This document shows positions 11,102 to 25,582 of a stretch of DNA of 58,804 nucleotides, piece by piece. Origin of the DNA: Limnohabitans sp. (lineage in GTDB: Bacteria; Pseudomonadota; Gammaproteobacteria; Burkholderiales; Burkholderiaceae_C); assembly GCA_024641725.1 (NCBI GenBank), contig JAHECM010000002.1:1-58804 (forward strand), written 5' to 3'. The notes beneath the pieces were generated by a model. It saw nothing but the letters and a program-made list of their open reading frames with translations, was not told the origin of the DNA and did no database searches. Made by a program: the position numbers and the translations under genes. Each line of letters opens with the position of its first letter. Within the stretch, counting starts at the first letter, position 1.

Positions 11102-11135
11102 ACTTTATGACTTGATTGTGTCAAATTCATGTCAA
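11102..11135 (-). promoter_or_regulatory. Pho box and -10 for pstSCAB-phoU-phoBR
   Basis: Minus strand TTGACAT-gaat-TTGACAC, 10 bp, TAAAGT. Confidence 0.85.
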
Positions 11136-11160: not shown

Positions 11161-11194
11161 AGTTCACGAAATTGTCATTGTTGATTTTTAAACT
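11161..11194 (+). promoter_or_regulatory. Pho-box-like site and -10 for the sia-like operon
   Basis: AGTTCAC-gaaa-TTGTCAT, 10 bp, TAAACT. Confidence 0.6.
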
Positions 11195-11213
11195 TTGAAA
11201 ATCGTCAACACAA

Positions 11214-11855
11214 ATGCAGGCAAACATGACAAGCAGAAAACTGGACGGCACATCCTTTTTGGATCTGCGGCGGCAACTGGAATCGCGAGGAATCGTTTTT
11301 TCCTACTGCGGCTACCTCAACGAGAACATCTTGACCGGGATCGGCAATGCGCTCCAAAGCAAGATGGCGATAGATCACACCGATCAAAAAATATCTCGAG
11401 GTATTTTTTCCACCTTCGTGGAGCAAGTCCAAAACGTGATCCGCTACTCGGCAGAAACGATCGGGCCGGAAGAGCGCATAGCACTTGAGCGGCAAGCAGA
11501 ACAAAACGCAGGGGTCGAAAACTCATCCTCCCTGGACGATGGAGAACTGCGGTACGGATTGATTGCCATAGGCGAATCTCCAGACGGCACCCGATTTGTC
11601 ACTTGCTCCAATCTGATCGAAAACAAAAATGTGGAGCGCGTGAAGGAATCCTTGGAGTCGATTCGGGGCTTAAACCGCAAAGAGTTGACAACGATGATGC
11701 GTGAGCACCTCAAAAAAGGCCCGCCAGAGGGCTCAAAGGGTGCCGGGGTGGGCTTTATCTCAATTGCCCGGGAGGCCAATGGCAACTGGGAATACGACAT
11801 GGTCCCCATGCCAGACGGAAATTTCACATTTTTTTGCCTCGAAGCCTATTTCTGA
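11214..11855 (+). CDS. siaB: SiaB-family protein kinase (GHKL, anti-sigma-like)
   Basis: FVEQVQNVIRYS N-box, GSKGAGVGFISIAR G-box, N-terminal FSYCG; directly upstream of a SiaC-like gene; start may be 11226. Confidence 0.8.
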   Translation: MQANMTSRKLDGTSFLDLRRQLESRGIVFSYCGYLNENILTGIGNALQSKMAIDHTDQKISRGIFSTFVEQVQNVIRYSAETIGPEERIALERQAEQNAGVENSSSLDDGELRYGLIAIGESPDGTRFVTCSNLIENKNVERVKESLESIRGLNRKELTTMMREHLKKGPPEGSKGAGVGFISIAREANGNWEYDMVPMPDGNFTFFCLEAYF

Positions 11856-11863
11856 GAAAAACC

Positions 11864-12244
11864 ATGGAAAAAATTGACATTCAAGCCACCGCTCGCACGC
11901 CATCTATCCAGTTCGACCCTCTGTCGGGGCAGTTCATTCTGGAAGGTGAATCCTATCCTGAGGATACAAAAAAGTTTTACGACACACCATTGAGTGGGGT
12001 CTATGAATTTCTAGAAGCCACGCCTAGCGTGGCATGCGTCTTCTCATTTCGACTGAAATACTTCAACAGTTCGTCAGCCAAAGTGCTGATGGACCTGTTC
12101 TTGGCCATCGAAGAATCCGCTGCTCGCGGAGCATCCATGAAAGTGCAATGGCACTTTGCAGAAGATGACGACAACATGCAAGAACTTGGAGAGGAATTTT
12201 CCGAGGAACTCAATGCCGCCAATTTTGAGTTGGTCACGTTTTGA
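11864..12244 (+). CDS. siaC: SiaC-family regulatory phosphoprotein (DUF1987)
   Basis: ATARTP, LEGESYPED..FY, LKYFNSSSAK, W..EDD..ELGEEF; 126 aa. Confidence 0.85.
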   Translation: MEKIDIQATARTPSIQFDPLSGQFILEGESYPEDTKKFYDTPLSGVYEFLEATPSVACVFSFRLKYFNSSSAKVLMDLFLAIEESAARGASMKVQWHFAEDDDNMQELGEEFSEELNAANFELVTF

Positions 12245-12262
12245 TGAACTGATGGGCACCGC

Positions 12263-13303
12263 GTGACCGATTCCTTTTTGGCCAAAGAGCAAGAGATCCT
12301 CAAAGAATGCGAACGCTTGCTCGCACAAGCGCCGGAGTCCATCGCCACCAGCGACTTCGTCAAGCTGACCAACGACTACGGCCGACTGTTGAAAAATTTG
12401 GCGCGCTTGATTCGGATCAGTGACAAAAACGAATTGCGGCTTCAAAGCGTGTCAGATGAGTTGGCCATAGAGAAAAAGAAGTTAGAGGCCCTTGCGGCCC
12501 AATTGTCAAAATATTTACCACGCCAAATTTACGACTCCATCTTCAGTGGGGACCAATCACTGGAGATCAAAACCAAACGCCGATTGCTGACTGTTTTTTT
12601 CTCGGACATACAGGGATTCACGCAAATATCGTCGGTCGTTCAACCAGAAATATTGACCAAGTACATCAACGCCTATTTTTCTGAGATGTCAGACATTGCT
12701 GCGAAGCACGGTGGCACCATCGACAAATTCATTGGCGATGCCATGATGGTCTTCTTTGGTGATCCAGAAAGCCGCGGGCCCCAAGAAGATGCATTGGCCT
12801 GCGTCCGAATGGCTTTCGAAATGCAGCGCCGTTTGTCAGAGCTGCACATCCAGTGGGCAAAAGAAGGGCTGCAACACCCCTTCATCACACGCATCGGCAT
12901 CAACACGGGCTATTGCAATGTAGGCAACTTCGGTAGTCACAGCCGAATGGCTTACACCATCTTGGGCGGCGAAGTGAATTTGGCCGCTCGCATTGAAAGC
13001 CAATGCGAGCCTGGCGGCGTCCTGATGTCCCACGAAACCTATGCTCAAGTGAAAAACTATGTGGAGGTCCGCGAGCGCGACCCCATCGAGCTCAAAGGCA
13101 TCACTTTGCCAGTGAAGACGTATGCGCTTGTCAAAGTCAGCGACACCGACCAATCACAAAAAATGGACCTTCAGATTCGACTGCCAGGTTCGAATAAATT
13201 TGTCATCAAACCTGCAAACCTCACCATGCCAGAACGTCTAAGCCTCATCTCCACTTTGAGAGACGTGGCCAACACCCTAGAAGGAGTTTCAGCAAATGAT
13301 TGA
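12263..13303 (+). CDS. Class III nucleotidyl (probably adenylate) cyclase with N-terminal coiled-coil stalk
   Basis: FFSDIQGFT, DKFIGDAMM (Lys = ATP specificity), RIGINTG, AYTILGGEVNLAARIE; no TM; N-terminal LARLIRISD helix. Confidence 0.9.
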   Translation: MTDSFLAKEQEILKECERLLAQAPESIATSDFVKLTNDYGRLLKNLARLIRISDKNELRLQSVSDELAIEKKKLEALAAQLSKYLPRQIYDSIFSGDQSLEIKTKRRLLTVFFSDIQGFTQISSVVQPEILTKYINAYFSEMSDIAAKHGGTIDKFIGDAMMVFFGDPESRGPQEDALACVRMAFEMQRRLSELHIQWAKEGLQHPFITRIGINTGYCNVGNFGSHSRMAYTILGGEVNLAARIESQCEPGGVLMSHETYAQVKNYVEVRERDPIELKGITLPVKTYALVKVSDTDQSQKMDLQIRLPGSNKFVIKPANLTMPERLSLISTLRDVANTLEGVSAND

Positions 13304-14504
13304 GAAAAAAGTCAAATCCATCCTGCGTCAGCAATGGCAGGTGTCAGAGAACGAAAAGTGCGGTGCGGTGATTTCCGCCATGCGCAAGGATGAAGCGGCC
13401 ATGGTGGTGCCAGTGTTCAACACGAACCAGGAACCGATCGGTCTGATAGACCGTCAATCAGCCTTGTCCATGGCATCGAACCCCCTGCACTTCTCGGTGT
13501 ACCAAAATCGAACCGCCAAAATGTTGGTTCAGGAATCCTTTCCGACCTTTGACATTGAGACCAGCATCGACGAAGCGTCGCAGGAAATGATCCGTCTTGG
13601 TCATTCGCTGAGCCAAGGCGGCTTCATGGTGACTGAAAATGGTCAGTATGCTGGCATTGGCGTCAACACAGACATGCTGGGGTACCTGGTCGAAGCCAAC
13701 CATGCGCGCGCTGAAGCATTGCATGAGTTGAACAATGAGATGATCGACAGCGTCAACTACGCAGGGCGAATTCAAGGCAGCTTATTGCCCGACAAAATTC
13801 AATTGCGCAAAGACTTGCAATCTGTCGGCGTGCTGTGGGAACCCCGTGACATTGTGGGAGGCGATGTTTACTGGCGCACGCCCGAGGAACACCAAGGCAC
13901 ATTCACCCTCGCCTTGATCGACTGCACAGGCCACGGCGTACCTGGCTCCTTGATGTCGATGCTTGTTGTGACGGCACTGAACAGCATATTTGCAGAGGAC
14001 CCAGCCATTGCCCCAGGGCAAGCCTTGGCCAAACTTGGCAACACGGTTCGATCTGCGTTAAAGCAAGACAAAGACGATTGCCAATCCAATGACGGCTTTG
14101 ATGCAGGCATTTGCAAAATTGACCCCCTTGCAGGCAAAGTGACCTTTGCAGGTGCCCGGACCAACTGCTTCATTGTTCCCAAGTCTGAAGACCCCGTGAT
14201 TCGACTTCAAGGTGAAAAACTGGCATTGGGTTATCCAGGCCGTGAGCCTTACAAGGCCCTGGAAGAATTTGAAGTCACATTTGAGCAATGCAAGACTTTT
14301 TTCATGGCGTCTGACGGCGTGTTGGATCAACCCGGCGGAGAAAACAGCCTGGCTTTTGGGCCCAAACGACTCACACAGGCCATCGAATCGAACCGCAGTC
14401 TCGACGCCGAGAACATGATGAAAGCCATGAAAAAGGTTGTCGATCAATGGCGGGGTCAGGAACACCGCCGTGACGATGTTTCTGCATTGGCGTTCTCCAT
14501 TTGA
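13296..14504 (+). CDS. PP2C/SpoIIE phosphatase with N-terminal CBS-like pair (SiaA-like catalytic domain)
   Basis: SVNYAGRIQ, WEPRDIVGGD, DCTGHGVPG, SDG..DQPGG, RRDDVS; N-terminus VPVFN..PIGLIDR...FMVTENGQYAGIG is CBS-like; no TM. Confidence 0.85.
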   Translation: MIEKKVKSILRQQWQVSENEKCGAVISAMRKDEAAMVVPVFNTNQEPIGLIDRQSALSMASNPLHFSVYQNRTAKMLVQESFPTFDIETSIDEASQEMIRLGHSLSQGGFMVTENGQYAGIGVNTDMLGYLVEANHARAEALHELNNEMIDSVNYAGRIQGSLLPDKIQLRKDLQSVGVLWEPRDIVGGDVYWRTPEEHQGTFTLALIDCTGHGVPGSLMSMLVVTALNSIFAEDPAIAPGQALAKLGNTVRSALKQDKDDCQSNDGFDAGICKIDPLAGKVTFAGARTNCFIVPKSEDPVIRLQGEKLALGYPGREPYKALEEFEVTFEQCKTFFMASDGVLDQPGGENSLAFGPKRLTQAIESNRSLDAENMMKAMKKVVDQWRGQEHRRDDVSALAFSI

Positions 14505-14646
14505 GATGAAAGAGCGGCTTTGATTTTTCTCGAAGCCAAAGCACTCTGACGCTTATGCATAATCGCTTCATGCACATGCATAAGCTGTCAGCCATCACGA
14601 TGGGCTCACCCTTCTGACAGACAACACGAGTCTTTAATGGATGGCC

Positions 14647-15960
14647 ATGTCGATAGAGCGATTCTTTGAAATTTTGGCCAAACAAAAAAGAGTGGACCAG
14701 CTGGTTCGCAACCAAAAAATGTCGCGCCATGACGTGATTGAGTCGCTGGTACAAAAGCAACACGACGCCGAATTGCTGTCAGCACTCAGCGGATTGACTG
14801 CCGCCGATCTGGGTGAGACTCTGGAAAAATTACCGCTGGAATATGCACAAATACTTTGGAGCAAATTGCCCCAAAATTTGGAGAATGATGTGCTTTGGGA
14901 ACTTTCCGAAACGCGCAGCCATGAGCTGGCGAGTGGGCGGGAACCCGATTTTTCAGAAAGTAAATTGGGGGTCTATGCATTGGTCGACGGCAAGATGCTG
15001 ACCGTCCCAATCACCCACAAAAAAGACTTAGAGGGTGTCAAACCTATCTGGGTCGATTTGATCAATGCATCCAAAGCACAGAGAGCTTTCATCGGTGCGC
15101 ACTTCAACATCGAACTGCCAGATCCATTGTTGGAAACAGACTTAGAGGTCAGCGCTCGATTTCACGTTGAAGAGGGCGACCAGATCCATTTGCACTCTAA
15201 TTTTTTGCGCGACCGCTCCGGCGATTCGCGCAGCGTGCCAGTGGCATTCATCCTGCACGAAGGTATTTTATTTTCTTTGCGCAGTGAAGATCTGCCAGTT
15301 TTTCGACTGCAAAAGCGCCTTGCAAAGACAAAGCCAGATTATGTCAAAGACAGCATTGACGTCTTGCTGGATCTCTATGGCGCAGATGTTGAAAGTTCCG
15401 CCGATTTTTTAGAGAACATCTACGCCACACTGGGGCGCATTGGCCACATGGTCTTGCATGAGTCGGTCACTGACCAACAAGCAGCCAGCACTTTGGCCCA
15501 AATTGCCGAAGAAGAAGACCACAACGGGCGAATTCGCAGCAACATTTTGGACACGCAACGTGCATTGAATTTTTTGATCCGTGGTCGACTGCTGTCCGCG
15601 AGACAAATGGAGGACGCAAAACAAATCTTGCGCAACATTGAATCGCTCAATAGCCACACATCTTTCTTGTTTGACAAGATAAATTTTTTGATGGATGCAA
15701 CCATCGGTTTCATCAACATCAACCAGAACAAGCAAGTGAATAAATTGACAATTTTCAGCGTGGTGTTCATGCCCATCAACATCTTGGCGGGCATTGGCGG
15801 CATGTCTGAATTTTCAATGATGACCCAAGGCATCGACTGGCCTGTGGCCTACGGTGGGTTTGCACTGGGGTCGGCCTGCCTCGGACTGCTGACATACCTG
15901 GCACTCCAACGCTTTGGCGCAAAGCCTGGCAAGGGCCACAAGTCAAATCAAAGGGCTTGA
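14647..15960 (+). CDS. corA: CorA-family cation transporter with extra MgtE-N-like N-terminal domain
   Basis: WVDL, LEVSARF, FLMDATIGFININQN, TM-GGMSEF-TM; N-terminal AADLGETLEKLP helix repeats; start may be 14641. Confidence 0.8.
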   Translation: MSIERFFEILAKQKRVDQLVRNQKMSRHDVIESLVQKQHDAELLSALSGLTAADLGETLEKLPLEYAQILWSKLPQNLENDVLWELSETRSHELASGREPDFSESKLGVYALVDGKMLTVPITHKKDLEGVKPIWVDLINASKAQRAFIGAHFNIELPDPLLETDLEVSARFHVEEGDQIHLHSNFLRDRSGDSRSVPVAFILHEGILFSLRSEDLPVFRLQKRLAKTKPDYVKDSIDVLLDLYGADVESSADFLENIYATLGRIGHMVLHESVTDQQAASTLAQIAEEEDHNGRIRSNILDTQRALNFLIRGRLLSARQMEDAKQILRNIESLNSHTSFLFDKINFLMDATIGFININQNKQVNKLTIFSVVFMPINILAGIGGMSEFSMMTQGIDWPVAYGGFALGSACLGLLTYLALQRFGAKPGKGHKSNQRA

Positions 15961-25067: not shown

Positions 25068-25582
25068 TCGACCTCTGCCTCTTCGCTATCTCCCGCTTCG
25101 CGGGCAACGGTCAAAAAATCCACCTTGGTGGTCTGAGCGCGTTGATGCCGTTGCCATTGAATTTTTTCGAGGTATTGACGAACCGGCTCCAGCAAGGACA
25201 GCTGCAACGCCTCATGGCGCGTGGGGTCTTGCAGCAGGGCATCTGCCAAAGCGGCCAGTCGGGCCTGCCGATGGTTTCGCCCCAGCACGTAGGAGACGCC
25301 GACTGCACTGCTGCCAACATCGTGAGCCAAGCGAAGGGCACAACGAGTGACAGTGATTTCACCGACATTGAAACGCTCGCCTGTTCCACCAATCCGACCT
25401 TGCACCATCATCAGACCCGTTTCTGGACGTCGCAGCCACTGTGGTGTCAGCGCAGCATCAACGGCCAAAGCCGACTCGAGCAAGTCCTCAGGTGCACGGG
25501 CCAAAAGCGCTATCCACTGTTGCCTTTGCGCGTGCTGACTCTCCCCTTCAATGGACACATCACTGTCAAACGCATGAAACAT
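25064..25582 (-). CDS. phnG: C-P lyase subunit PhnG
   Basis: RPETGLMMVQGRIGGTGERFNVGEITVTR, TKVDFLTVAR. Confidence 0.95.
   Translation of the reverse strand: MFHAFDSDVSIEGESQHAQRQQWIALLARAPEDLLESALAVDAALTPQWLRRPETGLMMVQGRIGGTGERFNVGEITVTRCALRLAHDVGSSAVGVSYVLGRNHRQARLAALADALLQDPTRHEALQLSLLEPVRQYLEKIQWQRHQRAQTTKVDFLTVAREAGDSEEAEVE

Follow-up and report, generated by a model that had tools for sequence, protein, structure and literature searches.

A Sia-type partner switch with a soluble adenylate cyclase as its likely output behind a Pho-box-like promoter in Limnohabitans

What does a Sia-type partner switch control when its genes stand next to an adenylate cyclase, and which signal feeds into it? 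This question is raised by four genes in a 58,804-nt stretch of Limnohabitans sp. DNA (assembly GCA_024641725.1, contig JAHECM010000002.1, positions 1 to 58,804; the whole stretch is called the window below). They encode, all on the plus strand, a SiaB-family Ser/Thr kinase (11214..11855), the phosphoprotein SiaC (11864..12244), a soluble class IIIb-type adenylate cyclase (12263..13303) and a phosphatase (13296..14504) in which a CBS pair (13296-13700) precedes a PP2C/SpoIIE domain. An earlier reading of the DNA letters alone, referred to here as the original prediction, had described a tightly packed unit of this kind, and the open reading frames (ORFs) were found where it placed them, with intergenic gaps of 8, 18 and -8 bp. 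The start of siaB is probably 11226 and not 11214, because an ATG at 11226 matches the start position in relatives. On balance, we regard the operon as a Sia-type partner switch that likely activates the cyclase, with PhoB as the likely inducer at low phosphate. The genes, their motifs, their co-occurrence and the conservation of the promoter are direct observations, from which we infer every regulatory arrow.

The kinase scored 147.8 bits against the family model NF038262 (cut-off 85), was also recovered by PF19788, and matched 6kko_A with an E value of 4e-12. Residues E70 and N74 and the GAGVG box are invariant columns in alignment A7, and E70 aligns with E61 of Pseudomonas aeruginosa SiaB, a glutamate predicted to be catalytic (10.1101/674879). 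SiaC was identified by PF09345 (DUF1987) with 119.8 bits; in the alignment with 6kko_C/6k4f its YFNSSS, which contains the NSSS phospho-acceptor motif noticed originally, falls on YLNTSS of P. aeruginosa SiaC so that S69 occupies the position of T68. Every P. aeruginosa Sia equivalog cut-off is missed by the operon proteins, with 63 against 225 for SiaB (NF038264), 85 against 150 for SiaC (NF038265) and 176.9 against 700 for the phosphatase in the SiaA model (NF038263). Five related modules with a CBS-bearing phosphatase (CBS-type modules; L151, L154-L157) carry a tandem duplicated siaB upstream of siaC.

The third gene product has a PF00211 output domain, and its best match in the PDB, the catalytic domain of P. 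aeruginosa CyaB (3r5g, E 2e-63), agrees with the soluble class III cyclase that had been predicted. D115, K155, D159, T232, N239 and R243 are intact, being invariant in alignment A1 and matched to 3r5g; they correspond to the two metal Asp, the ATP-specifying Lys/Thr and the catalytic Asn/Arg of such cyclases. A Lys and Thr pair marks ATP specificity in class IIIb cyclases, and CyaB, the closest solved catalytic domain, has the same pair. CyaB is held in the membrane by a MASE2 anchor, whereas the N-terminus of the window cyclase is a short soluble stalk, predicted to dock SiaC, without an anchor of this type.

Residues 10-70 of the cyclase match positions 31-93 of the SiaD model NF038266 (E 0.0046). 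SiaC of P. aeruginosa binds the SiaD stalk motif K77-V78-x-R80-I81-S82-D83-R84-Y85-Q86, where T68 inserts against S82 and Q86, and the RISD motifs of SiaD are its binding sites (PMC8457831). The corresponding segment of the cyclase, R48-L-I-R-I-S-D-K-N-E57, lies in a putative docking motif at residues 45-61 (12395..12445, plus strand) and keeps the RISD core, and a profile built from eight cyclase N-termini aligns with both RISD motifs in 7e6g. D54 is invariant across 55 stalks and E57 is found in at least 90% of them. Searched against longer proteins, the stalk profile found class III cyclases only, among 120 listed of 193 matches. When 31 genomes of the class were searched for a SiaD like that of P. 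aeruginosa, only generic GGDEF matches came up.

Modelling of SiaC with the cyclase N-terminus, proposed originally as a check, gave a complex. A 2:2 model of cyclase residues 1-104 and SiaC scored 0.80 as compared to 0.00-0.01 for the controls (best control 0.01), with a predicted local distance difference test (pLDDT) value of the partners of at least 91 and a contact agreement between runs of at least 95%. Of the solved pairs 116 of 157 passed the mark used for the complex score, and of the mismatched pairs 2 of 215, rates that hold only roughly for the cyclase-SiaC case. In the predicted complex S69 of SiaC contacts S53, D54 and E57 of both stalk helices.

The original prediction had called for a synteny survey, and the genes do co-occur elsewhere. 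We analysed the best 80 of 591 related cyclase loci in GTDB, a ranking that favours full-length similarity, with a stalk hidden Markov model built from five siaC-adjacent cyclases. The stalk was present in 54 of these 80 cyclases. In 53 of the 54 loci siaB and siaC accompany the cyclase, 47 with a SpoIIE gene as well; the sole exception lacking siaBC begins 95 bases from a contig end. Conversely, not one of the 26 stalk-less cyclase loci in this sample contains siaB, siaC or a SpoIIE gene. In three loci (L068, L077, L112) siaBC are adjacent to the cyclase although they lie on the opposite strand. In a quick tree of 91 catalytic domains, from which rows more than 93% identical had been dropped, cyclases with and without stalk are interleaved, requiring 11-13 changes, at least 4-5 of them forced by starred branches, and the link between stalk and siaBC is therefore not a single event. 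The surveyed loci come from Pseudomonadota, Desulfovibrionaceae and Campylobacterota. The claim that both ends of the Sia module have been exchanged stands computationally, for the output by the stalk motif, the co-occurrence and the complex model, and the predicted Pho link is supported by the conserved box. The claim has to be corrected in scope: the exchange of the output for a cyclase is a wide family that spans several phyla and combines with phosphatase sensors of many kinds, whereas CBS input and Pho box are limited to one betaproteobacterial-type clade. Five surveyed loci (L049, L059, L061, L065, L062) are titled Bifidobacterium or Bordetella, and their cyclases cluster with those of freshwater Burkholderiales; these are probably mislabelled bins. 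A sister module in two loci (L024:4117-9961, L023:6141-12110) has the order FIST - PP2C - siaB - siaC - cyclase and is flanked by two stand-alone genes for proteins binding cyclic nucleoside monophosphates (cNMP) and a class I phosphodiesterase gene, making up a complete cyclic-nucleotide circuit with FIST input. This input may be NosP-like.

The phosphatase domain belongs to SpoIIE (PF07228), with the five metal-site Asp residues D190, D209, D340, D393 and D394 invariant in all 29 sequences of alignment A6. Its N-terminal CBS region reached 22.6 bits, short of the 24 bits that Pfam requires, but residues 1-135 are predicted to adopt a CBS-pair fold (pLDDT 92, Foldseek E 1e-8), so that the CBS-PP2C assignment was upheld. 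The best structural matches are AcuB, DarB and other adenylate-binding CBS proteins with template modelling (TM) scores of 0.7-0.75. In the second repeat G120 and D126 are invariant and the usual Thr/Ser is absent; the two invariant residues may correspond to the G-h-h-x-x-x-D adenosyl-ligand site. The CBS profile matched proteins in 9 of 151 genomes of the class and 69 of 351 genomes of the phylum, and elsewhere this subfamily is found on EAL-CBS-GGDEF, CBS-GGDEF(-EAL) and CBS-histidine-kinase proteins. Among CBS homologues on such other outputs (L217-L254) 21 of 37 loci have a Pho-like promoter, the control counts being 7 of 740 for shuffles and 5 of 101 for other ORFs; the 37 loci are not independent, as about a third come from one family. 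This pattern in the DNA sequences suggests that the CBS subfamily is a phosphate-linked sensor across outputs. In one gammaproteobacterial-class family, 11 of 11 genomes encode EAL-CBS-GGDEF proteins that carry this CBS subfamily. These proteins may be RapA orthologues, RapA probably having the same architecture.

The Pho-box-like site and the TAAACT hexamer at 10-bp spacing, divergent from pstS, are present as the original prediction had it. The putative operon promoter (11161..11194, plus strand) consists of the direct repeat AGTTCAC-gaaa-TTGTCAT at 11161-11178 and the -10 element TAAACT at 11189-11194, separated by exactly 10 bp, and by sequence it matches the Pho-regulon layout of two 11-bp repeats, a 10-bp spacer and a -10 element (PHO box as defined in PMC4415409). 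For scoring, a Pho matrix was trained on those 28 of 29 pstS upstream regions of relatives that fit a relaxed box followed by 10 bp and TAnnnT, with no siaB sequence included. The siaB site scored 12.5, rank 5 among 2970 ORF upstream regions of the window's genome (G000); pstS came first (31.3), ppk1 third, ppx fourth and phnC sixth. We rejected the idea that the box belongs to pstS alone, since the divergent pstS promoter (11102..11135, minus strand) uses its own box at 11118-11135 with a -10 element at 11102-11107. A generic sigma-70 scan, which performed at chance level (3 found vs 2.8), did not list the operon site, which is no surprise given that the promoter has no -35 element.

In the relatives we scored 200 bp upstream of siaB after dropping 13 short or partial upstream regions and near-duplicates. 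The threshold was the 99.5th percentile, which 0.8% of the shuffles passed; the shuffles are a fair control because the background used 150 bp. Where siaB is the first gene, 16 of 26 CBS-type loci exceeded the threshold vs 0 of 13 loci with other phosphatase types (non-redundant); where siaB is internal, 2 of 3 CBS-type and 0 of 35 non-CBS loci did so, as did 4 of 9 loci with no phosphatase in view. In 49 non-CBS loci we also scored the starts of the genes for phosphatase, FIST or cyclase, and none of the 90 regions had a Pho box. In an ungapped overlay of 12 regions box and -10 element are in register while the spacer letters have diverged; 8 of the 19 loci chosen for the overlay had no anchor motif. 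Relatives in which the module does not adjoin pstS have kept the box, and pho, phn or polyphosphate genes lie nearby in 12 of 54 CBS-type vs 0 of 65 other loci (not deduplicated). A rearranged order, cNMP - cyclase - siaB - siaC - CBS/PP2C, is seen in L166, L168 and L170-L174, and L170-L174 have a Pho-like site that follows the cyclase start and precedes siaB.

These elements can be combined into a mechanism. Going by sequence footprinting, phosphorylated PhoB is likely to bind the box at 11161-11178, upon which all four genes would be transcribed. By analogy to SiaABCD, and given the intact active sites, SiaB would very likely phosphorylate SiaC at S69 and the PP2C domain remove the phosphate. 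Unphosphorylated SiaC is modelled, with good confidence, as a clamp on the cyclase's two paired RISD helices, which would probably stabilise the active dimer and raise cyclic AMP (cAMP), the direction being taken from SiaD. The CBS pair might tune the phosphatase by binding a ligand from the cytoplasm, the best candidate being an adenine nucleotide that signals phosphate or energy status; this step is a possibility that we put forward with reserve. In many relatives stand-alone cNMP-binding proteins would then read the signal and a class I phosphodiesterase would erase it. A broader and more tentative picture is that freshwater Betaproteobacteria possess a self-contained cAMP circuit set up by PhoB, in which a dedicated Pho-linked CBS subfamily, serving PP2C, EAL/GGDEF or histidine kinase outputs, senses intracellular phosphate or adenylate status and here drives SiaC dephosphorylation and hence cyclase activation, with cNMP proteins and the class I phosphodiesterase reading and clearing the product.

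Several observations weigh against activation of the cyclase by SiaC under PhoB control and have to be set against other explanations. That the cyclase is merely co-transcribed, SiaC having another target and the stalk being a generic coiled coil, would agree with the weak SiaD match (E 0.26 in a PDB-wide search, weak alone), as coiled coils draw chance matches, and with genome G038, which carries siaB-siaC-CBS/PP2C and no stalk match, an arrangement from which it follows that a Sia switch can exist without a stalk-bearing cyclase; in its locus (L021:3333-7699) a chemoreceptor gene precedes the three genes. We consider this explanation very unlikely in view of the conservation of D54 and E57, the co-occurrence in 53 of 54 against 0 of 26 loci with repeated changes on the tree, the siaBC pairs that remain adjacent on the opposite strand, and the near-zero scores of the complex controls. 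The complex score itself may stem from likeness to the solved SiaC-SiaD structure 7E6G. If SiaC does bind the stalk it could instead inhibit the cyclase, or phospho-SiaC could be the active form, in which case phosphate starvation would lower cAMP or only arm the switch. The stalk differs from SiaD at two contacts (N56/E57 vs Y85/Q86), offers one motif rather than two and meets a Ser acceptor; Pho-induced RapA lowers its own second messenger (PMC3032545), and co-induction of kinase and phosphatase means that transcription does not fix the net sign. In the model, however, S69 faces S53, D54 and E57 of both helices, the geometry in which phosphorylation blocks SiaD binding, and E57, being acidic, should add to the repulsion of a phosphate. 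Dimers are required by class III cyclases, and a clamp on paired stalks would favour them. We regard this explanation, in either form, as unlikely.

Activation of the cyclase could also be real without PhoB, the promoter reflecting spill-over from pstS or another OmpR-family regulator. The site and the pstS box are 25 bp apart within AT-rich sequence, the upstream half-site of the operon box, AGTTCAC, is a degenerate, poor match, 10 of 26 CBS-type loci fall below the threshold, and Pho boxes without phosphate regulation are known (PMC4415409). Moreover, the CBS-type cyclases form one clade (2 changes on the tree), so that the association of Pho box and CBS pair is essentially one contrast. We nevertheless find this explanation improbable because box, spacer length and -10 element stay in register in relatives away from pstS while the spacer letters diverge, because the same matrix puts pstS, ppk1, ppx and phnC on top, and because the box is absent (score -3.1) from L153, which belongs to the CBS clade but has another sensor on its phosphatase and agrees as one within-clade swap. 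For PhoB-induced activation of the cyclase it also counts as a difficulty that no cognate cNMP-binding or phosphodiesterase gene was found in the window's genome (77% complete), nor in G105 (99%) or G034 (90%).

The small stand-alone cNMP-binding genes share the motif FGE...R-S/G/A-A, and the class I phosphodiesterase has YHN..H and HD. Either kind of gene is near the locus in 26 of 54 CBS-type vs 11 of 65 other Sia-cyclase loci (not deduplicated). The phosphodiesterase is neither exclusive nor obligatory, as 45 of 127 genus genomes carry it and 3 of 5 close carriers have it in trans. The five cNMP-domain proteins of the window's genome look FNR/Dnr-like by eye, and a second class III cyclase there (G000:C273:10145-11359) combines a receiver domain with a eukaryote-like catalytic domain.

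The closest known system, the biofilm-controlling SiaABCD of P. aeruginosa (PDB 6KKO, 6K4F, 7E6G; PMC8457831, 10.1101/674879, PMC7278518), shares with the operon a SiaB-family kinase, SiaC, a PP2C phosphatase and an output enzyme with a RISD stalk. Its output is the GGDEF diguanylate cyclase SiaD, whereas that of the window is a class III adenylate cyclase (PF00211); it has two stalk motifs and a Thr acceptor instead of one motif and Ser, and its phosphatase SiaA is a membrane HAMP protein, in contrast to the soluble CBS-pair phosphatase of the window. The gene order B-C-output-phosphatase and the Pho-box promoter differ as well. By analogy, the module would work like SiaABCD without being a strict member, having neither GGDEF output nor membrane SiaA. 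RapA of Pseudomonas fluorescens is likewise a second-messenger enzyme behind a Pho box, induced by PhoB, and degrades cyclic di-GMP (c-di-GMP) directly (PMC3032545), whereas the window CBS pair sits on a phosphatase and would act via a partner switch on a cAMP synthase. HsbR-HsbA-HsbD and BgrSTUWV-BgrR also use a kinase, a phosphatase and a small phosphoprotein to control a signalling enzyme; as they are cited in PMC8457831, they employ STAS proteins and diguanylate cyclases and neither targets an adenylate cyclase.

In the literature searched, mostly at abstract level and with few subscription papers, supplements aside, we found no description of the Sia-adenylate cyclase wiring or of the Pho/CBS layer, in keeping with the original prediction, whose author knew of no characterised system with this architecture. 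If the module works as proposed, it would connect phosphate shortage to cAMP by a route not described before, and in abundant freshwater bacteria cAMP synthesis would be tied directly to PhoB. The widespread SiaC proteins have been proposed to modulate adjacent proteins, in a passage of PMC8457831 that names no target beyond SiaD; the operon is a concrete, small and soluble test case for SiaC with a different second messenger. New as well is that the CBS subfamily on GGDEF/EAL or kinase outputs also lies behind Pho-like boxes; it travels with them across outputs, and its ligand is testable on a 135-residue domain. If this holds true, the phosphate-starvation cAMP pathway would come with a candidate for the post-translational input of RapA-like enzymes.

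The closest named records for the operon, among the best-ranked cyclase loci, are Limnohabitans. The G+C content of its genes is 0.48-0.53 vs 0.62 genome-wide, a search for the phosphatase at E <= 1e-80 succeeded in 6 of 127 genus genomes, and none of 29 other pstS loci has a Sia module within 1.5 kb; taken together, this fits a patchy, laterally moved four-gene unit. A metagenome scan with the single phosphatase sequence as query found it in 0 of 46 stretches, and the scan was redone with a SiaB alignment. Contigs from three RNA-library sets of the same samples cover pstS and short pieces at 13835-14005 and 14594-14766, strand and level not being readable from contigs.

The operon is divergent from pstS-pstCAB-phoU-phoB-phoR and is followed by corA and then a phosphonate cluster. 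The corA gene (14641-15960, plus strand) begins 136 bp past the operon, is equally low in G+C and encodes a 125-residue N-terminal extension that is weakly MgtE_N-like. Altogether, positions 4529-40291 of the window form a large phosphorus island with phoR/phoB/phoU/pst, a gene for a PhnZ-like HD oxygenase, phnCDE, C-P lyase genes, ppk2, ppx and ppk1, in which ppk1, ppx, phnC and the gene at 25582 have top-ranked Pho-like promoters.

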